Positions 36,906 to 48,962 of a stretch of 64,000 nucleotides of DNA are shown here, in pieces. The stretch lies in contig OY970243.1 of the NCBI GenBank assembly GCA_963715435.1, positions 1,716,320 through 1,780,319 of the forward strand. Reading direction: 5' to 3'. Every line of letters starts with the position of its first letter. Within the stretch, counting starts at the first letter, position 1. The notes beneath the pieces are model-generated. The model did not search any database. It was not told the origin of the DNA and was given only the letters and a program-made list of their open reading frames with translations. The translations under genes and the position numbers were made by a program. The stretch is from Vulcanimicrobiota bacterium (GTDB taxonomy: Bacteria > Vulcanimicrobiota > Vulcanimicrobiia > Vulcanimicrobiales > Vulcanimicrobiaceae).

Positions 36906-37034
36906 CTAATTCCATTTGGTCGGTCCCCAGCCCGTGAAGCCGGAGAGCCGGGGTGCGACTTCGATCACATGGGTGAAAGAGAGCACCGGGCGTTCTTCTT
37001 TCGGGATGGTGACTTTTTTCCGAGGGGCTTTCAT
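36906..37034 (-). CDS. untracked 42-aa ORF (candidate small peptide 'A')
   Basis: Hand translation gives MKAPRKKVTIPKEERPVLSFTHVIEVAPRLSGFTGWGPTKWN. GGAAGGA lies 7 nt upstream of the ATG. By hand count its third-position GC is higher than that of the competing 68-aa frame (36892..37098). Confidence 0.35.
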   Translation of the reverse strand: MKAPRKKVTIPKEERPVLSFTHVIEVAPRLSGFTGWGPTKWN

Positions 37035-37094: not shown

Positions 37095-39329
37095 TCATGT
37101 GCCGGCGTCGGCGCCGGCGTGAAACACGTACTTCACGATGAGACGGTCGATAGTGGCGCCGGCGGCCGGACTGCCGTAATTGACGTAGAGCTCGTTGCCG
37201 CCGCGGAAGCGCTCGTGAAATGCAACGGCGAGGTTGTTGCCGATTTGCGTTGCAAAGCCGCCGTATCCGTTAATGTCGCGTAACGCGACCGTGAACGTGC
37301 TTTCGTCGCCGAGATTAACGCCCAGCGTCACGCTGCGCAGCCACTGCGAATCGAGCACCCCGGTCGTCATCGAGCGTTCGTACGTCCCGTCGTAGCTGAG
37401 CCCGAGCGTAACGATGCGGGCAACCGGGCGGGCGGTCGATGCGGTAAAGAGGTGCACGTAGTTACCGCCAAACGGTCCCCACGAATAGTTCACGTCGACC
37501 GGCGACGGCGTCCCGTCGCCATAACCGGCCGGAATCTGGTAAAGGTTGTACGGCTGCGTCACTCCGTCGCGATAGCACGGATAGCCGGTGAACGTCGACT
37601 GATATTCGATCGGACCGCTGCAGTTCGGCCCCGAGGGGATTCCATATTGCCGCAGCTGGCCGACGGCGACGCCTGCACCGTCGATCGAAAAGTTATTTTT
37701 GAACGTCACGTTGAGGAGCGACTGTGTGTCGGCCTGATGGACCGCTCCCGTTTCATCGATAAAGCGATCGACGCCCGTGAACCACGTCCAATTCTTGATT
37801 CCGGGCGTCGACCCGACGAAGTTGAAAAACGCCATCGGCCCACGAACGTCCGAGATCGGCGTGTAGCCGTCGATCGGGTTGTAGTTGGGCGCCGTATCCA
37901 TGTAACTGGTGAAAACCTCCCAGTTAGGTTTGTGGATGTCGACGCTCGCCTGCGAGAAGTCGGCGTGTCCCTGCGGGACCCAGCTGCCGTCTTCGAATGC
38001 GTGGTCGACGAACCACACGAGACCGTTATGGTAGTTGCGGCCTTGCGCGCCGAACTCCATCGTGTCGTCGTCGCCGGAGATGCTGTGGTGCGCGAGCACG
38101 CCGTCGCTCCAATAATAGAACGTGCCGTCGGGAAGCGCGTGCTCGTAACCATAGGCTTCGTCCGCAAACGTGTTGCCGGTGGTTTGGTCGAAGCCGCGAA
38201 ACGCGAGCACGCCGAAGCTCTGCTTGCCGAACGTCCCTTCCGTCTTTGCTCCCCAGTCGAACGGTCCAATATCGGGGGAATAGAAAATGAGGTTTGGCGC
38301 GGTCGTGATGCCCCCGGACGGCGTGCGCGAGCCCGACGACGCGTTGATGAAGTTTGCGCCCTGCGCGAAAAACGGACGATACTCGACGAGCTGTCGTTGG
38401 AACTCTTGCGGAACGATCGTTTGTTGATCGATCTCAACGTTGGAGAAATCGGGATTCGCGGTGCCGACGAAACTGATCGTCGGCGTCAGCGGGTAGCTCA
38501 CGTCCAAACCGTAGTTGCGCACCTTCATCGGCAAGAACTCGCCGTTGGCTTGCTGGAAGAGCTCGCGTTCGCCGCCGGCGCTTTCCAATCCGAAGATGTC
38601 CGCCCGTCCCTGGCCGCGGCCGCCGCCGGCGATCTTGATCCCAGTCGCCGACGGCCAAAAGCGCGTGTCGTTGAACTGCGGCCAGTTGCCGGATGGGGCG
38701 TCCTGCATGATGCCGCTGTATCCCCAGACGTAGTGCTCGCCGCGCGCCGCGACTTGCCGGACGAACTGAATGTGCCAGGTTTGTGACCCACTAATCTTGA
38801 GCGCCGAGAGGGGAATGACCATGACGGCCTTCCAGTTACCGTTCTCGACCTTGGCAGCGGCTAACCAGCGCGGACGGTAACGGACGTTCTCGTTCGCCTG
38901 CTCGTAGCGTACGCCGCGCGGGGTGGTCTCGAAGTAGTATGAGGTGCTTCCGGCGCCGCTCGTGTCGAGGCCTATCCCGACGAAATCGTCGATGCCGAAG
39001 CCGCTGTCGTTGGTTGCCTGCGTCGCCGTGATCGTCGTCCCCCGTTGGGCCGCCTTGAACGCGATGTAGAGACTCTTGTTGTCGTAGAGCACGTAAGCCG
39101 TGGTTTCGTGCGGGGCCGCCGACCGGGTCGTGACGTTCTCCCAGGGGCCGCTGCCGTTGGGAACCTCGCCGGCCGCCCACGCTGGGTCGCTCAGGGAGGG
39201 GTCGAGGGATAGGGGGTGAGGTGCGCGCGCCACCGGAAACGAAAACTTCTGCTCTACAACGGCGTATACGGGGGTAGCAGAGAACGCCACTCCCAGGAGC
39301 GTTGCGAGGACGAGACCGGCAGGTTTCAT
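37095..39329 (-). CDS. large secreted protein, CBM9/DOMON-like N-terminal domain (DUF5916-like)
   Basis: Signal peptide MKPAGLVLATLLGVAFSATPVYA. N-terminal LSDPAWAAG...YVLYDNKSLYIAFKA is typical of family-9 CBM-like modules. The remainder is beta-rich and rich in Tyr/Gly/Asn. The family call is tentative. Confidence 0.5.
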   Translation of the reverse strand: MKPAGLVLATLLGVAFSATPVYAVVEQKFSFPVARAPHPLSLDPSLSDPAWAAGEVPNGSGPWENVTTRSAAPHETTAYVLYDNKSLYIAFKAAQRGTTITATQATNDSGFGIDDFVGIGLDTSGAGSTSYYFETTPRGVRYEQANENVRYRPRWLAAAKVENGNWKAVMVIPLSALKISGSQTWHIQFVRQVAARGEHYVWGYSGIMQDAPSGNWPQFNDTRFWPSATGIKIAGGGRGQGRADIFGLESAGGERELFQQANGEFLPMKVRNYGLDVSYPLTPTISFVGTANPDFSNVEIDQQTIVPQEFQRQLVEYRPFFAQGANFINASSGSRTPSGGITTAPNLIFYSPDIGPFDWGAKTEGTFGKQSFGVLAFRGFDQTTGNTFADEAYGYEHALPDGTFYYWSDGVLAHHSISGDDDTMEFGAQGRNYHNGLVWFVDHAFEDGSWVPQGHADFSQASVDIHKPNWEVFTSYMDTAPNYNPIDGYTPISDVRGPMAFFNFVGSTPGIKNWTWFTGVDRFIDETGAVHQADTQSLLNVTFKNNFSIDGAGVAVGQLRQYGIPSGPNCSGPIEYQSTFTGYPCYRDGVTQPYNLYQIPAGYGDGTPSPVDVNYSWGPFGGNYVHLFTASTARPVARIVTLGLSYDGTYERSMTTGVLDSQWLRSVTLGVNLGDESTFTVALRDINGYGGFATQIGNNLAVAFHERFRGGNELYVNYGSPAAGATIDRLIVKYVFHAGADAGT

Positions 39330-39400
39330 CGGTATACCAGCGTCACTCGCATCTGAGCGCGACGTCCTCAGAAAGCCATCAAAGATTTATGGAGCGCCTG

Positions 39401-40813
39401 ATGAGCGTCTACGAATTCGGACCATTCTTGCTCGATTCCGAGCGCATGCTGCTGCTCGATCGCGGCGAACCCGTATCGCTCGGACCAAAAGTCGTCGAGA
39501 CGCTGCTCGCACTGATCGAGCATCCCGGCGAAGTGCTCACCAAGAGTGCGCTGCTCGATCGCATCTGGCCCGAAGGTTACGTCGACGAAGCGAATCTGGC
39601 GCAAAACGTTTACGTGCTGCGTAAGACCTTGCGCGCGCGCTGGGACACCGACGCAATCGAGACGATCCCGCGCCGAGGATACCGTTTCGCGCGCATCGTT
39701 GCTCGCCGTGAGAATTTGCCGCTGGCCGAGCCGGCTGCGGCTTTGCGGCGCCGCCCGGTCTGGGGCTTTGCTGCTGCCGCGGGCGCGGCATTCCTACTGG
39801 TGGCGATACTCCTAGCGGCCGCACTCGTCCCTCACGGCGCTTCGGCTCGCACCGCGCTCTCGCCCGAAGGCGCGCGGTTGTACGAAATCGGCCGCTATTA
39901 CTGGAACATGCGGACGCCCGACGGCATGCAAAAGAGCCTGCAGTATTTCGGGCGCGTAGTCGATACCGATCCGCACAACCCGCGCGGATACGCCGCGCTC
40001 GCCTCGGCGAACGCGCTGATGGCGGACTACGAATACGGCAGTGCCGCGCCAAAGACGTATTACGCGCGGGCGCAGGCCTACGCGCGTAAGGCGCTTGCAA
40101 TCGATTCCAGCTCCGGCGAAGCTTATGCCGTGCTCGGCATGATCGGGTCGATGAAATACTCGACGGACGAGGATATGGCAAACGCGCTCGATCAGCTCGA
40201 GCGCGCGATTGCGCTCGACCCCGGCAGCGGTCCGGCGCACGAATGGTACGGCGTCGCGCTGTTCGAGCGCGGCCGTTTCAACGACGCGTACTCGCAACTG
40301 CGTACTGCCGCCCAGCTCGATCCGCTTTCGGTCGCGACGTCGGCGTGGTTGAGCAGCGCCGCCTATCACGAGCATCGGTACGATGACGCGATTGCTTACG
40401 CGCGCGAAACGCTCGATCTCTCGCCGCAGCGGCACGACGTCTTGCAGACGATCGGCTTATCGTACGAGGCGCTGGGCGATCGCGAGCGCGCGCTTGGCGC
40501 GTATCGGAAGCTGGCGCGGTCGTGTTCCGACTGCCGCGCGCAAGCCGCTGCGTTGATGGCCGGCCTCTTCGCGCGCTCGAACCGCATTTCCGATGCGCGC
40601 GCCGAGCTTGCGATAGCGCAGGCGCATCCGAAGGAGGTCTCTCCCGATGACCTCGCAGTGGCCCTGGCCGCAATCGGCGAACGCGCGACCGCGCTGTCGC
40701 TGCTCAGCCGCACGCCGCATGCGTTCGTTCGAGCGGAAATGGCCACCGATCCGCGCTTTGCCGCGCTGCGCGCGGATCCGCGCGTTGCGCAGAAGCTCGG
40801 CGTCGGCTCTTAA
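39401..40813 (+). CDS. CadC/OmpR-type winged-helix transcriptional regulator with TM segment and TPR domain
   Basis: ATG at M34 of ORF 39302..40813, with GGAG 6 nt upstream. trans_reg_C motifs (YEFGPFLLD, LIEHPGEVLTK, RRGYRF), one TM helix, and C-terminal TPR repeats. Confidence 0.75.
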   Translation: MSVYEFGPFLLDSERMLLLDRGEPVSLGPKVVETLLALIEHPGEVLTKSALLDRIWPEGYVDEANLAQNVYVLRKTLRARWDTDAIETIPRRGYRFARIVARRENLPLAEPAAALRRRPVWGFAAAAGAAFLLVAILLAAALVPHGASARTALSPEGARLYEIGRYYWNMRTPDGMQKSLQYFGRVVDTDPHNPRGYAALASANALMADYEYGSAAPKTYYARAQAYARKALAIDSSSGEAYAVLGMIGSMKYSTDEDMANALDQLERAIALDPGSGPAHEWYGVALFERGRFNDAYSQLRTAAQLDPLSVATSAWLSSAAYHEHRYDDAIAYARETLDLSPQRHDVLQTIGLSYEALGDRERALGAYRKLARSCSDCRAQAAALMAGLFARSNRISDARAELAIAQAHPKEVSPDDLAVALAAIGERATALSLLSRTPHAFVRAEMATDPRFAALRADPRVAQKLGVGS

Positions 40814-42447
40814 GCCGTTCCCGTCGCGCGGGCGACGACACGCTCGACCTTTACGAGACGCGTCTTCGTCCAGCGGTCGTGCAGCAGCACGCGGCGCTTG
40901 AAGACGCTCAAAGGCACGATGAGCCACCATAAGAACCCGACGATGATGTAACGAGCGATCGTTCGTAAGATGCCCGGTTTGCGGAAGTCGACCGTAACGA
41001 CGCGCAATCCGGTGATCATCATGCCGAAGGTCTGACCGGCGAGCCCGACGAGCAGCGCAAGATAGACGGGAAGCCAGAAGCCGAAACCAAGCCGCCGCAG
41101 CGCCGCGTTGAGCGTATCGGCATTCAACGGCTCGTACGCTCCAAAAAGATGGAGCATCACGCCGCCGCTTTCACTGACCGCAAATGGACCGACGGTCAAC
41201 GGTGTGGCAGTCGGCGCCGGGGACGCCGTTGGAGAGGGCTGGGCGGTTGGTGCCGACTTTGCGGCGGTAACCGTGCCTTTTCCGTTACGATCTTTGCCGT
41301 TGACGTGTATCGAACCGCCCGGAATATTGATGTCCACGTGTCCCGGCGAGACGTCGGCAACGTCGGAATCGCCGGCGTTGCCGAGCACGCGTACCGGAGC
41401 GACGCTTCCTCCGAACGACGTGATCACGGCGGCTACGACTACCGCATCGATGAGATACGCCGCAGCGCGTCGCCACCAGCCGGCGCAGTCGCGCTCGCCG
41501 ACGGTTGTGGTTCCGGGTGCGGCGACCGCCGGCGGCTCCTCGCCGCGCTCGCGCGCAAACCACGCGCGGGCCGATTCGTATGCGGGTGTCGACATGAACG
41601 CGCGCAGCGACGCGATACGCGTGGTCGCGTAGGGTTCGCTTCCCAGCCACACCCCCCAGCGGAAGATCGTATCCGATTCGATCTCGACCTGCTGCTGCGC
41701 GAAGACGTCGAAATCCACTTTACGCGCAAACTCGTGAAACGCGCTCACGCCCATCGCCCGGATCGCTGCATCGATCGATCCGCAGCAAAGTAAGCCGACC
41801 TTGTCGCACGTCGTCGTGCAGCGCCGCAGCCAGCCGCCGAAGATCAGGGCGACGATCGGGTTCTCGTTGCCGTTGACGCTGAGCAGTGAAAGAAACCGTG
41901 TATGTCCGGCAGCGATGTGTCCGAGCTCGCGGCCGATTGCAAACGCCAATTCGTCGTCTTTGAATACTTCGATCCAATGGCTCGACAGTACGAGCGAATA
42001 CGGTTCGCCGAAACCGAGAGCGGCAACGGGCACGAAGTTATCTTCGCGCACGAAGACCAGCGGCATCGGAATCTCAAGCGCTGCGCATGCGTTCTTGACG
42101 ATGGAGAATACGCGCGGATACTGCGCTTCGTGCACGCGAACGCTCGACCCGAGCAAACGCCCGCGCGCCAAGGTGACGTAGACCATCGCTACGACGATAA
42201 ACAGCGCTACTTGCGACGCACCGATCGATTCGTGCAGCACGTACCCGATTAAAAGTGCGGCTGGTAGCGCTAAGATCGCGGTCCACCAAAAGGCTATCCG
42301 CTCGTACGGATCGCGTAAGGAAAATGGACCTTCGAAGAGAGGGATGCCCACGGGTGGGGTTTGGTTGGCTCTGGCTGCGGCACCCGCCGTTCGGCGAGTC
42401 GCGGCCCCGCTATCCCTCGGGACGCGCGCGTTTTTGCATCCGGGCAA
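40810..42447 (-). CDS. M48-like peptidase domain (HExxH replaced by RELGH) fused to RDD domain
   Basis: AFAIGRELGHIAAGH aligns to the M48 HELGH motif with Arg (CGC) at the first His position. C-terminal RDD-type membrane domain (WWRRAAAYLIDAVV). Start is uncertain: ATG 42447 or GTG 42351. Confidence 0.65.
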   Translation of the reverse strand: MPGCKNARVPRDSGAATRRTAGAAARANQTPPVGIPLFEGPFSLRDPYERIAFWWTAILALPAALLIGYVLHESIGASQVALFIVVAMVYVTLARGRLLGSSVRVHEAQYPRVFSIVKNACAALEIPMPLVFVREDNFVPVAALGFGEPYSLVLSSHWIEVFKDDELAFAIGRELGHIAAGHTRFLSLLSVNGNENPIVALIFGGWLRRCTTTCDKVGLLCCGSIDAAIRAMGVSAFHEFARKVDFDVFAQQQVEIESDTIFRWGVWLGSEPYATTRIASLRAFMSTPAYESARAWFARERGEEPPAVAAPGTTTVGERDCAGWWRRAAAYLIDAVVVAAVITSFGGSVAPVRVLGNAGDSDVADVSPGHVDINIPGGSIHVNGKDRNGKGTVTAAKSAPTAQPSPTASPAPTATPLTVGPFAVSESGGVMLHLFGAYEPLNADTLNAALRRLGFGFWLPVYLALLVGLAGQTFGMMITGLRVVTVDFRKPGILRTIARYIIVGFLWWLIVPLSVFKRRVLLHDRWTKTRLVKVERVVARATGTA

Positions 42448-42589
42448 AAACGCTACTCGCTTCGGCCTTCGCTGACGCCCTCCGTGGCTTCGCTCGGCCC
42501 TCAGACGCCCTCGGGATTAGCGGGTGCCGCTCCGGCCGGTGATAGCGGATGCCTAAGCCGCGCCAACAAATTTATTTTTCGGCTGGGGG

Positions 42590-42636
42590 TTGACCGGGGC
42601 GTATGCATGCATTATTGTACTAGTGTACTAGTTCAA
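42590..42636 (+). promoter_or_regulatory. sigma70-like promoter (TTGACC-17-TATTGT) overlapped by a 22-bp near-palindromic operator
   Basis: TTGACC at 42590-42595 and TATTGT at 42613-42618. ttgtactagtgtactagttcaa (42615-42636) is self-complementary at 18/22 positions and contains a tandem GTACTAGT. Confidence 0.45.
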
Positions 42637-42673
42637 TAAGAGATTGGACTAGGCGTCCCGAAAGGATACCACT

Positions 42674-42793
42674 ATGATCCGGTTCACGACCAACCGCCCC
42701 GACCCCGAAATGGCCCGCGAGGCCCGCACCCCCGTTCGTCTGCCCGAGCAGATGGCGTCCGGTCTCTTCCAAGGCTGGGGCCCGAAGTTCTAA
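42674..42793 (+). CDS. untracked 39-aa ORF (candidate small peptide 'B'), first gene of the GntR/ABC operon
   Basis: Hand translation gives MIRFTTNRPDPEMAREARTPVRLPEQMASGLFQGWGPKF. AAAGGA lies 7 nt upstream of the ATG. 34 of 39 third positions are G/C by hand count. The stop is 15 nt before the gntR ATG. Confidence 0.5.
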   Translation: MIRFTTNRPDPEMAREARTPVRLPEQMASGLFQGWGPKF

Positions 42794-42808
42794 GGTACCG
42801 CAGCTAAG

Positions 42809-43215
42809 ATGCCGGCCGTCCTCACGGTCGATCCGCGCAGTGGAGTTCCAATCTACCTGCAGATCATCGAGCAGATCAAACGATCCGTCGCTCTGGGGAT
42901 CTTGCAAGCGGGCGAACAGCTCCCTACCGTCAAGCAGTTAGCGTTGGATCTTACCGTCAACCCGAACACCGTTGCGCGAGCCTATCGCGATCTCGAACGC
43001 GACAGCGTCATCGAGACATCCCCCGGAAGGGGATCGTTCGTCCGCGGCAACGGTGTAGCGTCTTCGGCGAAAGCCGCCGCGAATGACATCGCACGCGACG
43101 CGATCGACGCGGCCTTACGCGAAGCCAAGTCGGTCGGACTCTCCCGCAGCGACCTGCGCGAACTCATCGATGCCGCCGTCAACCGGTGGTTCCCGGAGGA
43201 GCAACAGCAGCTTCC

Positions 43216-43219
<4 letters not shown>
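42809..43219 (+). CDS. GntR-family transcriptional regulator, YtrA subfamily
   Basis: 136 aa. PIYLQIIEQIKRSV...LPTVKQLALDLTVNPNTVARAYRDLE forms the winged HTH, followed by a short C-terminal helical domain. Confidence 0.85.
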
Positions 43220-44084
<865 letters not shown>

Positions 44085-44088
<4 letters not shown>

Positions 44089-45149
44089 GTTACGTCGAGT
44101 GGCTGCGCGTTCGCGGCTGTTTAAAGTGGACGGCGATCGTGCTGGTCGTATGCGTGGCATTCGTTCTCTTCGCGCGTTTCACGTTTCTCGAGATCCGTCC
44201 GAACCAGCACGGCTTCTCCGGCATCTTTATCGGCAGCCAAGATCTGGCGGACTTCGAGCGCGGCTCCAACCAGACGCAAACCAAGCTTCGCGACGGGACG
44301 TTCCGGACCGTTATCGACAACGCCGTGACCGGCACGCGCATTACGATCGACGATCACGGCTACTGGGGCAAGCACGTCGAGATTTTCGAAAAGAAGCCGC
44401 CCGCCGGCGTCCACCCGACGAAGATCGGCTTCGCCGACATTCACGCGCAGCGTCTCACGGTTCCCGGCGGCAGTCTGGTGAAGATCGACACGGGCGCGCT
44501 CGTTCCCGAAGACTTGGACTACTATTTTATTATGGCGGCGATCGTCGCGTTGATCGTAGCCACGATTTTGGGGGCTCCGTTCGCGCGCGAGAACGAGGGA
44601 CACCTCGAACTTGCCCTCACCAAGCCGATCTCGCGCATCAATCTCGCACTGCAAACGATAGCGAGCGACTTCGCGGGTATCGTCGCGGCGTGGGTGATGA
44701 CCGTAATATTCCTTATCATCGGTCATACGATATTCGAAGCACCGAACTATACCTACGGTCCGACCGACACCGTCGTGCTTGTCGTCGGTCTGCTCGGCGC
44801 ATTCTCGTGGTACGCGCTGCTCAACGCTTCAACGGCATCGATGAAGCGCGCTTACGGCGGAGTACTCGGCACGGCATGGCCGGTCGCGATCGGGCTGAGC
44901 GGCATCGCTCACGCCCCGTTGGGAGACTCGCCGCTCGCCGATTTCATTCGTTGGGTCGGCACGACGCTGTCGTGGCTGTTTCCGATCACCTATCTGCACT
45001 TTGCGTCCATCTCCGGAATCGCATCGCGAGAGCATAGCGCGCTTACGACGTCTCCGCTCCCGCCTGAAGCCGTCATCGTTATTCTGGCCGTTCTCGCTCT
45101 CGTTTACGGCGCGGCCGCCATCTACCAGTGGCGGCGCGTGGAGGCTTAA
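44085..45149 (+). CDS. ABC-2-like permease, paralog 1
   Basis: ATGA overlap with the ATPase gene. N-terminal TM, a ~130-aa external loop, then five TM helices. Paralogous to 45309..46337. Confidence 0.6.
44094..44119 (+). repeat. 26-nt exact repeat, copy 1 (5' end of permease paralog 1)
   Basis: gtcgagtggctgcgcgttcgcggctg is identical to 45318..45343. Confidence 0.9.
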
Positions 45150-45155
45150 ACCGTC

Positions 45156-45308
45156 ATGGAGATCTTAGGAACCAACTTCACCCTTTCGCTCGGCGCTTGG
45201 AGGCTCCGTTTCGTGCTGGCGATTGAAGACACCGAGGCACAGCCTGTGCCGCGAGCGCATGTGCCGCATCGCATGCGCGTCGTTCCCGAAGACGAGTACG
45301 TCCGCTAA
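45156..45308 (+). CDS. 50-aa inter-paralog ORF, possibly a relic of a duplicated ABC ATPase 3' end
   Basis: MEILGTNFTLSLGAWRLRFVLAIEDTEAQPVPRAHVPHRMRVVPEDEYVR, with its stop TAA abutting the next ATG. Its tail ...MRVVPEDEYV resembles the ATPase tail ...VRVVDLNLEDIFLY, and the 10-mer tgcgcgtcgt is shared. Confidence 0.25.
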   Translation: MEILGTNFTLSLGAWRLRFVLAIEDTEAQPVPRAHVPHRMRVVPEDEYVR

Positions 45309-46337
45309 ATGGGCTATGTCGAGTGGCTGCGCGTTCGCGGCTGCCTGAAGTGGGTCGCGATCGTGCTCGGCGCACTCTTTCTCATCGGGGTCATCCTGCG
45401 CGTCGCGCTTGTGGGTCGCCAAGACTACACGAGTTGGGCTGTTAATCTCAAATCCGATCCCGGCTCGAAAGTGACGGAGACGACGCTGCCGAACGGAACG
45501 CGGCGCACGGCGATCGAGGACCCCGCCAAGCAGTTGCGCGTCATCGTATTCGACCGCGGCTGGCAAGGCAAGCGCATCGAGATTTACGATTACTCCGAGC
45601 ACGGCTCCAACGACTTGAAACACGTCGGGGTGGTGATGGGTTCGGTCAACGTTAATCGCTTGCCGTCGGGGCACGGAACGTTCACCGTCATCGACACCAA
45701 CGGCGAGACCGACTTCATCAGCTACGTGGTCGGCGCCGCATTTGCCGCTTTCATCGTCGCGACGGTGCTCGGTGCGCCGTTCGCACGCGAGGGCGACGGG
45801 CACTTAGAGATCGCGCTCACCAAGCCGGTCCCGCGCTCGCGCTATAGCATGGAAGCGTTGGGGATCGATGCGCTGGGTATCGTCGCGGCCTTCTTCACGA
45901 CCATCGTTTTCGCGATCGCCGTCCACGCCATTTTCGAAATACCGCACATCGTCTTCACCGCGAGCGATGCATTGGCGCTGATGGTTGCAATCCTGGCTCC
46001 GATAGCGTGGTATGCGATGTTATCGGCTGCTACGGCTTCGTTGCGGCGCGGCTACGGCGCGGTACTCGGCTTCGCGTGGCCGGTCGCAGGCGTACTGCTG
46101 GCGCTGGGTTACGCACAACCCGACGGAAACGCCATTCTAGCGATCGTTCACAACATCGCCTGGGTGTTCGATCTTTTTAACCCTCTCGCGCACATCAGTC
46201 TGCATCACGAGGACATCCAAATCGGCGGTCCGGCGGTCTTCGGCATTTCATACGAAAATCAGATCGCCGTGCTGGCCATCCTGACAATCCTGTACGGCGC
46301 CCTGTCGATCGTGCAGTGGCGCCGCATCCAAGCATAG
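45309..46337 (+). CDS. ABC-2-like permease, paralog 2
   Basis: Same topology as 44085..45149. N-terminus MGYVEWLRVRGCLKW compares with MSYVEWLRVRGCLKW in paralog 1. Conserved E(L/I)ALTKP and STASxxRxYG blocks. Confidence 0.6.
   Translation: MGYVEWLRVRGCLKWVAIVLGALFLIGVILRVALVGRQDYTSWAVNLKSDPGSKVTETTLPNGTRRTAIEDPAKQLRVIVFDRGWQGKRIEIYDYSEHGSNDLKHVGVVMGSVNVNRLPSGHGTFTVIDTNGETDFISYVVGAAFAAFIVATVLGAPFAREGDGHLEIALTKPVPRSRYSMEALGIDALGIVAAFFTTIVFAIAVHAIFEIPHIVFTASDALALMVAILAPIAWYAMLSAATASLRRGYGAVLGFAWPVAGVLLALGYAQPDGNAILAIVHNIAWVFDLFNPLAHISLHHEDIQIGGPAVFGISYENQIAVLAILTILYGALSIVQWRRIQA
45318..45343 (+). repeat. 26-nt exact repeat, copy 2 (5' end of permease paralog 2)
   Basis: Identical to 44094..44119. 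Confidence 0.9.
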
Positions 46338-46438: not shown

Positions 46439-46732
46439 ATGAGCAGCACGAACGAACGCTTCTACGTCCTGGACGAGGGATATAGGCTAATATTGGCGCC
46501 GCCGCCGGCGCCAGACGATCCTATGAACGAGTTGTATGAAGCGACGACCGCGGCGGACGCCCTGCCGCCCGAGATCGATTACGCCGTTAGGAACTTGACG
46601 AGGGGTTGGGACCGCGATAGTGCACCGAAAGAAGCGTCGATGATGGTGAGCGGCATGTGGCTTTCGGTCGCGCCGCTGCAGGGGCCGGTCGGGCCGCACT
46701 TCGCGATCCGCGTAGAACGCGCAGTCGCTTAA
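46439..46732 (+). CDS. hypothetical 97-aa protein immediately upstream of TfuA
   Basis: ORF with high third-position GC. No recognisable family. Pro-rich segment APPPAPDDP. Confidence 0.5.
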   Translation: MSSTNERFYVLDEGYRLILAPPPAPDDPMNELYEATTAADALPPEIDYAVRNLTRGWDRDSAPKEASMMVSGMWLSVAPLQGPVGPHFAIRVERAVA

Positions 46733-46777
46733 CACAGCGCTGCAGGCTTGCATTTGCGGCTCGCAAAGTTGCCGCAC

Positions 46778-47410
46778 ATGAGCGCCTGCTCGCTCTGCGT
46801 GTTCTGCGGCCCTTCGTTGCCGCCTGAAGATCGCGTGGTGTCGCCGAGCGTCGTTTACGTGCCGCCCGCGAGTCGCGGAGATGTGGCTCGTGCTGCAGAA
46901 CGCTTCGACGCGTTGCTCATTATCGACGGCGTTTTCCATCACGATCTGGCACCGACGCCGCGGGAAGTGTACGATGCACTCGTGCGCGCTCGCGTTTTCG
47001 GAGCGTCCAGCATGGGTGCGCTACGTGCGGCCGAGTGCGCAGCGTACGGCGCGGTTCCGCTCGGCATAATCGCCCGTTGGTATCTGCGCGAGACGATCGA
47101 CGGCGACGATGAGGTCGCCGTACTGGTCGACCCGCAGACGCAGCGGACGCTCACGGTGCCCAGCGTCAACGTCCGGTACGTTGCGGCGCTGGCAGTTCGG
47201 CGCGGCTTGATGGATCGTACGTCGGCGAGTGAGTGGGTAAGCAGCGCGCGCGACATTTTTTACATGGATCGAACCTGGGAGAGTGCGATCGAACGCGCAC
47301 CGCTCAAAGTACGCAAAGCGTTGGGCCTCATCGCATGTAAAGAAGGCGACCTCAAACGCTGGGACGCGCGCTTCGCACTTCGTTCCGTACGAAGGCGTTT
47401 AGCCGCATGA
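46778..47410 (+). CDS. TfuA-like protein
   Basis: ATG at M11 of ORF 46748..47410. CVFCGPSL..., PPASRGDV, IIDGVF and GASSMGALRAAE are TfuA-domain hallmarks. Confidence 0.8.
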   Translation: MSACSLCVFCGPSLPPEDRVVSPSVVYVPPASRGDVARAAERFDALLIIDGVFHHDLAPTPREVYDALVRARVFGASSMGALRAAECAAYGAVPLGIIARWYLRETIDGDDEVAVLVDPQTQRTLTVPSVNVRYVAALAVRRGLMDRTSASEWVSSARDIFYMDRTWESAIERAPLKVRKALGLIACKEGDLKRWDARFALRSVRRRLAA

Positions 47411-48675
47411 CTGCGTTGCAGTTGCCGTCGTCCGAGCTTAAAGCGCCCGGTTCGTACGACCGCAGCGTTTCCGTGGAGAAAACGCTCGCCGTCGTACCAG
47501 AGCTTCGCCGGCGTTTCGGTATCACTCGCCTCGCCGACACGACTCGGCTGGACCGGCCGGATATTCCCACCTTCTCGGCCGTCGTTCCGCATTCGGATCT
47601 GCTGAGCGTATTCAACGGCAAAGGTGCGACGCGTGACGCTGCGCTCGTGAGCGCCGTGATGGAAGCTGTGGAACGGCAAGTGATGGGGGCGCCCGCCGTT
47701 GCAACGCACCGTCGCCGGGTCCGCGACGTGTGCCGCGTTCTCGATCTCGACGCGCTGGGACTGTTGCCGCAAGCGCGGGATCTCGAAGCGCAATGCGCGT
47801 GGGGCACGGATCTGCTTTCCGGCGACGACGTACCGGTGCCGATGCATGCGATCCAATGTCCTTGGTATGGCGAGCGGCTTTTTCCGATGTCGAGCAGCAA
47901 CGGCGTAGCCGCGGGAAATACGTTGACTGAAGCGCTCTATCACGGCCTGGCAGAGCTCGTCGAGCGTCACGTGTGGTCGCTGTTTTACGTGCGCTGCGAG
48001 CTAGTTCCGCGGTTTTACCGGCCTGATGCGATCGATAGCGCCGCGGCGGAGATGCTCTCTTTTCCGACCGGCGACGCCTATATCGATGGACTCGCTCGCC
48101 GCATCGAAGAAGCCGGACTGATACTGCGCGTGATGATCTTGCGGGAGGACGATCTTCCGGTCGTGGCGCTCGCAACGACGATCGAGCCCGGGTCGGACCC
48201 GCCGATGGCTCATCAAGGCTTGGGATGTTCGCTCTCGCCGGCGCACGCCGTCGGTCGCGCGATTACGGAATGCGTTCAGAGCCGTGTCGTCGACATTCAA
48301 GGAGCGCGGGACGATCTTTTGCGCCCCGACGATCCGTCGCGGGTAACCGGCGAACACACGCGGCGTCCGCGCTTATTGCCGAAGGATCGCTGGTTTTTGG
48401 ATCTCCCGGCGCGCGCGCTGATGCTGCACGAAATTTCCGATCGGAGCAGCCGCGATCTGGCCAAAGACCTTCGGCTCGTGCTCGAGCTGCTCGACGAGGC
48501 CGGCCTCGGGCCGATCGTAGCAATCCCCATCTCACCCGCCGATATTCCGGTTTCCGTCGTGCGCATCGTCGCGCTGCGCCTGGAAAATACGTTCAGCTCG
48601 GGCAGAATCGGCCGCCGTGGAACGGCACTCTTTAGTCCATTCCATCTCGTAAAGGAGAAGATGTCATGCCTATGA
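47407..48675 (+). CDS. YcaO-domain protein (TfuA-associated type)
   Basis: ATGA overlap with TfuA. Motifs GKGATRDAALVSAVMEAVER and SSSNGVAAGNTLTEALYHGLAELVERH match the YcaO ATP/Mg-binding core. Confidence 0.85.
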   Translation: MTALQLPSSELKAPGSYDRSVSVEKTLAVVPELRRRFGITRLADTTRLDRPDIPTFSAVVPHSDLLSVFNGKGATRDAALVSAVMEAVERQVMGAPAVATHRRRVRDVCRVLDLDALGLLPQARDLEAQCAWGTDLLSGDDVPVPMHAIQCPWYGERLFPMSSSNGVAAGNTLTEALYHGLAELVERHVWSLFYVRCELVPRFYRPDAIDSAAAEMLSFPTGDAYIDGLARRIEEAGLILRVMILREDDLPVVALATTIEPGSDPPMAHQGLGCSLSPAHAVGRAITECVQSRVVDIQGARDDLLRPDDPSRVTGEHTRRPRLLPKDRWFLDLPARALMLHEISDRSSRDLAKDLRLVLELLDEAGLGPIVAIPISPADIPVSVVRIVALRLENTFSSGRIGRRGTALFSPFHLVKEKMSCL

Positions 48676-48962
48676 CGCCACAGCAAATCAAGAACGTCGC
48701 CACCGGCTTCGTTCACATACTCGTCATGCATTCGGAAGTCTACGACGCATGGATTACCGTCGCTGAGACCGGAAACGCCGCGAGCATCGGAAAGTTTGTA
48801 CAAGACTGCATGTTTCTTCAGAGTGCGCCGACCGAAGACGAGATTGCAGCCATGGACCGTCATCTGGGAACGGCGATGCAGCAAGACGTGGCCACCTTCA
48901 GGCAGATGCGACCGGATGCTCCAGTGGTTCTCGCCATTTGCGGCGAGGAGCACGGCACCTAG
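48666..48962 (+). CDS. hypothetical 98-aa protein overlapping the YcaO stop
   Basis: AAGGAG lies 8 nt upstream of ATG 48666, and the ORF overlaps the ycaO end by 10 nt. Acidic, helical-looking sequence. No family recognised with confidence. Confidence 0.5.
   Translation: MPMTPQQIKNVATGFVHILVMHSEVYDAWITVAETGNAASIGKFVQDCMFLQSAPTEDEIAAMDRHLGTAMQQDVATFRQMRPDAPVVLAICGEEHGT

Follow-up and report, generated by a model that had tools for sequence, protein, structure and literature searches.

The DNA analyzed is a window of 64,000 nucleotides (nt) from a Vulcanimicrobiota bacterium (assembly GCA_963715435.1, contig OY970243.1, positions 1,716,320 to 1,780,319 of the forward strand), and all coordinates given below refer to this window. 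The subject is an open reading frame (ORF) of 39 codons at positions 42674-42793, the first cistron of an operon which encodes a GntR-type repressor of the YtrA subfamily, an ABC ATPase and two ABC-2 permeases (Table 1). On comparative sequence evidence the ORF is almost certainly a genuine protein-coding gene, established short of proteomics. It founds an undescribed family, marked by the C-terminal motif F-x-G-W-G-P and so far known only from genomes of Eremiobacterota (Vulcanimicrobiota) and from metagenomes of soil and peat.

Table 1. Features of the F-x-GWGP small ORF locus and its surroundings
Feature	Coordinates	Strand	Remarks
Type 2 F-x-GWGP small ORF, 42 amino acids (aa)	36906-37034	-	Ends in ...GFTGWGPTKWN; MKAPRKKVTIPKEERPVLSFTHVIEVAPRLSGFTGWGPTKWN; own Shine-Dalgarno GGAAGGA
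ToxR/CadC-like regulator	39302-40813	+	Pfam Trans_reg_C and TPR
M48 peptidase-like and RDD membrane protein	40810-42447	-	Divergent neighbour; Pfam M48, RDD
Sigma-70-like operon promoter TTGACC-17-TATTGT	42590-42618	+	
Probable YtrA-type operator	42617-42653	+	Tandem GTACTAGT-GTACTAGT (42617-42632) and third box TGGACTAGG (42645-42653)
Shine-Dalgarno AAAGGA of the small ORF	42661-42666	+	7 nt before ATG
39-aa small-protein gene (type 1 F-x-GWGP family)	42674-42793	+	First cistron of the operon
C-terminal motif F-x-G-W-G-P-[KR]-hydrophobic	42767-42790	+	FQGWGPKF, codons 32-39; invariant
TAA stop and 15-nt gap to gntR	42791-42808	+	Probable termination-reinitiation junction
YtrA-subfamily GntR repressor, 136 aa	42809-43219	+	Pfam GntR, E = 4e-15
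ABC ATPase, DrrA/PmtA-like	43216-44088	+	ATG overlaps gntR stop (ATGA)
First ABC-2 (type V) permease	44085-45149	+	AlphaFold2 pLDDT 87.7
Second, paralogous ABC-2 permease	45309-46337	+	
TfuA and YcaO	46748-48675	+	

The small ORF translates as MIRFTTNRPDPEMAREARTPVRLPEQMASGLFQGWGPKF, followed by TAA; LPEQMASGLFQGWGPK is a predicted tryptic peptide of the product. A preliminary description, made from the letters of the window alone, had listed several signals in support of a coding function. The Shine-Dalgarno (SD) sequence, the promoter and the spacing to the gntR ATG were all found in place, and a recount of G+C at the third codon position gave the same 34/39 (25/39 and 21/39 at the first and second positions). 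The promoter is the sole promoter-like site in the interval 42300-43300, where shuffled sequence yields a mean of 0.3 sites, and 55 nt separate the end of its -10 element from the ATG. Direct GTACTAGT repeats overlie the -10 element and the presumed transcription start. The tandem pattern is unique in the window, with 0 occurrences expected by chance, and in relatives, too, the small ORF is preceded by these boxes (TGTACTAGTAC ... GGTACTAG). The boxes probably act as an operator.

The 39-aa peptide is soluble, hydrophilic and rich in Pro, Gly and Arg. The translated sequence has no hydrophobic stretch, and hence no transmembrane (TM) segment. Neither a signal peptide nor a conserved GG/GA leader cleavage site was found in the peptide alignment, and the N-terminus, M-T-x-F, is hydrophilic. 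In an AlphaFold2 (AF2) model of the peptide fused to GntR the peptide features a pLDDT (predicted local distance difference test) score <50, no stable helix and no confident structure. No family in Pfam or NCBIfam matches it. The sequence is already present in public collections, where its name, if any, is "hypothetical protein".

Conservation of the ORF was analyzed in two sets of loci. The GntR protein was scanned against one genome per prokaryotic species, which identified 80 loci. Most are titled Eremiobacterota or Vulcanimicrobiota (Baltobacteraceae, Cybelea, Tumulicola), a few reside in otherwise-labelled bins, and GntR identity across the genome loci measures 73-93%. Peptide matches (tblastn) were found directly upstream of gntR in essentially all genome loci, and the position of the ORF is kept in 81/81. 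Metagenome contigs were scanned with the peptide motif alone, and 80 loci were identified, in every one of which gntR starts 6-31 nt downstream of the small ORF. The ORF is intact in 79/81 genome loci and 80/80 metagenome loci, i.e. in 159/161 combined. The two frameshifted loci lie in metagenome-assembled genomes (MAGs) whose names carry the prefix MFD, as do those of many MAGs with an intact ORF. Orthologous ORFs begin with ATG and measure 34-40 codons, with the exception of L070 (52 codons), and an SD match of at least 4 nt precedes the small ORF in 77/77 loci.

A few loci are labelled as other phyla. L006, L009, L069 and L076 are found in bins named Acidiferrales/Acidoferrum, L071 in one named Alphaproteobacteria, and their GntR proteins are 74-84% identical to those of Eremiobacterota loci; mis-binning is a more likely source of such labels than transfer.

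The peptides feature 71 distinct sequences, and every length difference corresponds to whole codons. The C-terminus F-x-G-W-G-P-[KR]-[FLVIA]-stop is conserved in 81/81 genome loci. Synonymous variants occur inside the invariant motif (GGC/GGA/GGT, CCG/CCC/CCT, TTC/TTT), the penultimate Lys is replaced by Arg in 20/81 loci, and the last residue varies among hydrophobics. The N-terminus M-T-x-F and a mid motif, R-E-x-R-T-P-V-R-L-P, are also conserved, while the N-terminal half is variable. The ratio of nonsynonymous to synonymous substitution rates (dN/dS), calculated pairwise in close pairs, is 0.15-0.19 for the small ORF, compared with 0.11 for gntR. In the last 9 codons the proportions of nonsynonymous (pN) and synonymous (pS) differences are 0.10 and 0.41, respectively. 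The preliminary description had raised the question of whether the peptide or only the DNA is conserved. Purifying selection acts on the amino acids, and RNA structure is not conserved: Rfam has no match in 41500-44000, and RNAalifold analysis of 20 diverse loci gave -3.2 kcal/mol, 0 compensatory pairs and no supported structure. The reading of the region as an RNA leader was rejected on these negative results. Frame retention, in-frame indels, low dN/dS and the SD matches all agree with the initial claim that the ORF is coding. Soil metatranscriptome contigs of relatives join the 3' two-thirds of the small ORF to the start of gntR.

A family profile was searched against 1.84 billion proteins and retrieved 88 clusters at 50% identity, nearly all full-length, 34-54 aa long. 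One candidate, P0021 (186 aa, four profile matches), was rejected as a family member, as it looks like a translated repeat element. No record was found of the exact peptide sequence of L029, and no peptide of this kind was found in a literature search for the F-x-GWGP motif. With more than 160 loci, the family spans 88 clusters or more, and where names were looked up the only one seen is "hypothetical protein".

The order that makes the small ORF the first cistron of a GntR/ABC operon, proposed earlier for the window, recurs in related loci. In 178 loci searched by tblastn with the proteins of the window, the conserved unit, present in nearly all, is made by the peptide, GntR, the ABC ATPase and one or two ABC-2 permeases; in distant members with an annotated context, the permease gene is the last of the operon. 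The nearest NCBIfam models of the GntR protein are Rv1152 and PmtR, the nearest solved structures 3BY6, 4HAM, 3NEU and 4R1H, regulators of about 125 aa which we take to be YtrA-type. Its AF2 model features a winged helix and two C-terminal helices, fitting the YtrA subfamily (about 120-140 aa). The PmtR and PmtA models (NF047563, NF047565) are among the best NCBIfam matches of the operon, with scores far below the equivalog cut-offs (68 vs 200 bits and 131 vs 350 bits, respectively). The first permease was placed by fold comparison only, as a sequence search against solved structures gave no match. Its AF2 model shows one TM helix, a beta-rich extracytoplasmic domain between TM1 and TM2, and five further TM helices. 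Foldseek aligned it to the transmembrane domains of NosY, ABCG2, ABCG25 and KpsM with probability about 1 and weak E-values, and a weak GldF/ABC2 family match was also found. The tandem permeases (44085-46337) both match one gene in most relatives; two genes were found only in the closest ones (e.g. L001, L002, L008).

The preliminary description considered translational coupling of gntR to the small ORF possible, and the wider set of loci makes this plausible. The gap between the small ORF stop and the gntR start measures 3-31 nt across loci; an SD-like match is missing at 34/77 gntR starts and limited to 3 nt at a further 9. Since many gntR starts lack an SD and the gaps are short, the small ORF probably feeds ribosomes to gntR, whose translation would depend on ribosomes finishing the upstream cistron. 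Such coupling is a cis effect, and does not need a conserved peptide. The end of the small ORF is constrained. In GntR-type loci the stop lies exactly two codons after GWGP (161/161), and is TAA or TAG (161/161), never TGA, the codon that accounts for 31% of long-ORF stops in the same loci; at least 9 independent changes between TAA and TAG are counted on the tree. A read-through or frameshift fusion with GntR was rejected, because only some loci have a gap divisible by 3, and 7, 10, 16 and 19 nt are frequent gap lengths.

Members of the family are found also outside GntR-type operons. A stand-alone 39-aa member, MTYRPELTNAELPRSARTRIRLPEDKTSTGIFPGWGPRL, resides in L018 (1045-1164, minus strand), 4.7 kb from the peptide-GntR operon of the same genome. 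It features a strong promoter (TTGACA-17-TAAGAT), two palindromic operators (AACTAAAT-N-TTTAGTT) and an SD (TAGGAGG), and is followed 29 nt downstream by a convergent subtilase gene. The identical stand-alone peptide was found in the same context in five assemblies; the loci with the stand-alone member are L018 and L164-L168. Other members (P0071, P0084, P0036) are first cistrons of operons for a repressor of the BlaI type and an M56 protein that resembles BlaR1 and carries pentapeptide repeats; these peptide-BlaI-BlaR1-like operons (L162, L169, L171) share the operator type of the stand-alone copy. In the BlaR1-like proteins (L162 609-2471, L169 4534-6528) the M56 motif HELAH is intact, and C-terminal pentapeptide repeats replace the penicillin-binding sensor domain. 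No transporter was found nearby in the contexts examined of BlaI-type operons and of the stand-alone copy.

The type 2 ORF of the window is the last gene behind that of a 744-aa DUF5916-like protein; the next gene is convergent, and there is no downstream cistron. The type 2 peptide is conserved in L001, L175 and L176, the last with the same context, and in five database clusters (P0091-P0095). The motif F-x-GWG[PTA] is confined to these small ORFs in 1.37 Mb of DNA read in six frames. In variants outside the GntR type 4, 10 or 12 residues follow GWGP, and the next start codon lies at no fixed distance from the motif.

Upstream of the operon, the M48-RDD gene is divergent. Its translation probably begins near 42348, some 33 codons after the TTG given as its start. 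The sequence at the HExxH position (about 41917-41931) reads RELGH, RQLGH, RELSH, CELGH or REIGH in the window and 36 relatives. HExxH was found in 0/37 sequences: the first His is replaced by Arg (once by Cys) in all 37, and the catalytic Glu by Gln in 7. Since the motif is altered in all, the protein is a conserved pseudo-protease, rather than the product of a sequencing error. A homologue lies upstream, on the opposite strand, in 35/77 loci. The ToxR-like regulator features a winged helix, a TM segment at about residues 153-180 and an extracytoplasmic TPR domain. Most loci whose flank is long enough have a homologue upstream of the peptide operon; it lies directly before the peptide in loci without the M48-RDD gene. 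In some relatives, and in the distant L161, the recurring order is DUF5916-like (minus), ToxR-like TPR (plus), sometimes M48-RDD (minus), and the peptide operon (plus); the corresponding window interval is 37095-40813.

The region between the M48-RDD gene and the small ORF (42377-42548) contains nested inverted repeats (GCGGCACCCGC/GCGGGTGCCGC and CCGCTATC/GATAGCGG) and a 10-bp hairpin, GCGTTTTTGC-6-GCAAAAACGC. These repeats may be a small palindromic repeat element.

The evidence leans, if modestly, towards a trans-acting, disordered docking mini-protein which would function in envelope-stress regulons, and would in addition couple gntR translation. In this scheme GntR probably represses its own operon (peptide, YtrA-type GntR, ABC ATPase, ABC-2 permeases) at the GTACTAGT operator. 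Release of the repressor from this site would allow translation of the small ORF from its strong SD. Having terminated at TAA, ribosomes would start again 15 nt further on, at the gntR ATG with its poor SD, and the end of gntR overlaps the start of the ATPase gene. The released peptide would act in trans, and its tail F-x-G-W-G-P-[KR]-hydrophobic-COOH would be a short motif by which it docks on a conserved partner, one that takes part in signalling of the envelope-stress or antibiotic type. The M48/M56 peptidase fold is the leading candidate partner, because it is the sole protein class common to GntR-type and BlaI-type contexts. The peptide may bind the cytoplasmic peptidase-like domain, that of the dead M48-RDD protein here and of the BlaR1-like M56 protein in BlaI operons, and so modulate inactivation or sequestration of the winged-helix repressor. 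Dead M48-RDD, M56 BlaR1-like proteins and the ToxR-like TPR sensor are all candidates, and the choice of the M48/M56 membrane proteins, suggested by gene context, is of low confidence.

Several observations weigh against the docking mini-protein. The lineages are uncultured, and support for translation of the small ORF is at sequence and transcript level only. About half of the loci showed no M48-RDD gene in as much upstream flank as was available. The stand-alone copies which speak for action in trans are few, one type 1 lineage and the type 2 family. The peptide was modelled by AF2 in its natural in-frame read-through fusion with GntR, by using a 40-sequence paired alignment; the repressor part folds confidently, and no docking of the peptide on the GntR monomer was observed. 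This negative result is a weak test, because the model features a monomer, a tethered peptide and an alignment of 40 sequences only. The fixed stop and the avoidance of TGA would also fit a cis function linked to termination; the need for a precise, non-leaky C-terminus of the docking motif would explain both. Finally, the ABC exporter of the operon and the neighbouring periplasmic TPR sensor would suit an exported and an intracellular peptide about equally well.

Export is nevertheless considered unlikely. The leaderless 39-mer, or a C-terminal F-x-GWGP fragment of it, would be a signal or cargo pumped by the co-encoded ABC-2 transporter and sensed outside, for example by the periplasmic TPR domain of the ToxR-like regulator, in a layout resembling comC-comDE (signal, regulator, machinery). 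GntR-type operons always co-encode the peptide with an ABC exporter, and both repressor and ATPase are nearest to models of the Pmt system, which exports phenol-soluble modulins (PSMs), peptides without signal sequence. The conserved extracytoplasmic TPR neighbour has a peptide-binding fold, the type 2 peptide gene follows that of a large DUF5916-like protein, and a variable N-terminal half joined to an invariant C-terminal part is reminiscent of pro-peptides. However, the peptide is hydrophilic and devoid of signal peptide, TM segment or double-glycine leader, and the permease has the type V/ABC-2 fold, typical of pumps that extrude lipophilic or amphipathic compounds. No transporter lies near the BlaI-type operons or the stand-alone copy, and the conserved unit lacks a processing or modifying enzyme. 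The motif is invariant over deep divergence, unlike fast-diversifying quorum-sensing pheromones. A broader proposal, quite unlikely at present, is that F-x-GWGP mini-proteins make up an Eremiobacterota-specific peptide-signalling layer, in which they would be outputs of YtrA-type, BlaI-type and ToxR-like TPR regulators read by a dedicated receptor, either the M48-RDD pseudo-protease or, after ABC-2 export, a periplasmic TPR sensor. If true, such a layer would be a previously unknown wiring of stress regulons by a leaderless peptide.

The regulatory leader peptide, offered in the preliminary description as the alternative to a precursor function, is disfavoured by members without a downstream cistron, lack of RNA structure and loose spacing. 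In this reading, which is very doubtful, the nascent F-x-GWGP-K-F chain would delay the ribosome during elongation or at termination, perhaps when a small molecule is sensed, and so set the level of gntR re-initiation. The invariant residues lie at most 8 codons from the stop, itself at fixed distance from GWGP in all 161 GntR-type loci and never TGA, and the length of 34-40 aa approximates the capacity of the ribosomal exit tunnel. The gap to the often SD-less repressor start is tight, and the same peptide heads two unrelated repressor families, as a portable translational device would. Against this, no cistron that could be regulated follows the stand-alone and terminal members, GWGP is followed by 4, 10 or 12 residues in some variants, the distance from motif to next start varies, and there is no conserved RNA structure which a stalled ribosome could remodel. 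Conservation extends to the N-terminus M-T-x-F and the mid motif R-E-x-R-T-P-V-R-L-P, whereas the last residue varies among hydrophobics and the penultimate one is K or R. Given the stand-alone copy, the BlaI-type operons, the terminal type 2 ORF and the loose spacing, a purely cis-acting leader is unlikely. A literature search for arrest peptides upstream of repressors retrieved nothing relevant.

The ORF had also been suggested to encode the precursor of a ribosomally synthesized and post-translationally modified peptide (RiPP), at a distance of 3.6 kb from TfuA/YcaO; from the ORF stop to TfuA the distance measures 3.95 kb. Size, position at the head of an exporter operon near TfuA/YcaO and a conserved C-terminus would fit a RiPP precursor, and the closest relatives cannot be scored, because L001 and L087, which carry a homologue of the 97-aa ORF found ahead of TfuA in the window, end before the TfuA position. 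TfuA and YcaO are nonetheless missing in 178/178 related loci, among them some in which the downstream flank extends over 6 kb and GntR is 83-87% identical, and the conserved unit contains no modifying enzyme. The family resides also in BlaI operons and stand-alone, the peptide matches no RiPP precursor family in Pfam or NCBIfam, and family-less ORFs directly flanking TfuA/YcaO (46439-46732 and 48666-48962) are closer candidates. The role of the small peptide as substrate of the neighbouring TfuA/YcaO is largely refuted by this gene distribution, and we regard it as extremely improbable. TfuA/YcaO with flanking family-less 97- and 98-aa ORFs (46439-48962) were seen only in the window. Lys-Trp crosslinked (streptide- or darobactin-like) and ComX-like readings were set aside, because Lys is replaced by Arg in 20/81 loci and no radical S-adenosylmethionine or prenyl-transferase gene is found in annotated contexts.

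The locus may be compared with several known systems. Precursors of TfuA/YcaO thioamide RiPPs, of the thioviridamide or thiovarsolin type, are similar in that a precursor-sized ORF lies within a few kb of TfuA/YcaO, and differ in that co-occurrence is not conserved here; annotation of the small ORF as a thioamide RiPP precursor is a tempting mistake which the present data correct. The ribosome-arrest and leader peptides TnaC, SpeFL and SecM are likewise encoded by short ORFs heading operons, with invariant residues near the stall site or stop and a length similar to that of the exit tunnel. They act only in cis, via Rho sites or RNA structures. In contrast, the family described here features no conserved RNA element, variable spacing and stand-alone copies.

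Part of the peptide family heads operons of the BlaI type with BlaR1-like M56 proteins, and is comparable in this respect to BlaI/BlaR1 (MecI/MecR1). MecR2, a ROK-like anti-repressor of 289 aa, is a precedent for an extra operon-encoded modulator of the repressor. The sensor carries pentapeptide repeats here, rather than a penicillin-binding domain, and to our knowledge a small first-cistron peptide has not been described for BlaI systems. In PmtR/PmtABCD of Staphylococcus aureus a YtrA-type repressor controls an ABC-2 type exporter, and both cargo and inducer are small peptides lacking a signal sequence. The PSMs form amphipathic helices, and their genes lie at other sites of the genome; the peptide described here is Pro/Gly-rich, predicted to be unstructured, and encoded inside the operon.

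YtrA-type repressors lack a classical ligand domain, and the ways in which they are switched are only now emerging, through MbrR sequestration and YtrG. In the MbrR-MbrAB module of Streptococcus salivarius, a YtrA-like repressor without classical ligand domain is set by contact with the cognate ABC ATPase (bioRxiv 10.64898/2026.02.18.706565). The module has no small peptide gene, and the likeness is confined to a YtrA-type repressor which can be switched by a protein partner. The nearest positional analogue is YtrG (PMC13729164, PMC12772383), a small protein recently shown to be functional and not a mere leader. Its gene opens the ytrGABCDEF operon of B. subtilis and likewise lies directly before those of a YtrA-type repressor and an ABC transporter. 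Unlike YtrG, which is monotopic and transmembrane, the present peptide is hydrophilic, lacks a TM segment and contains F-x-GWGP; a sequence relationship is not evident. A whole candidate phylum places a highly conserved soluble mini-protein before repressors of both YtrA and BlaI type, which bears on the communication among small winged-helix repressors, membrane (pseudo)proteases and ABC-2 pumps, with one motif and a few candidate partners as a concrete handle.

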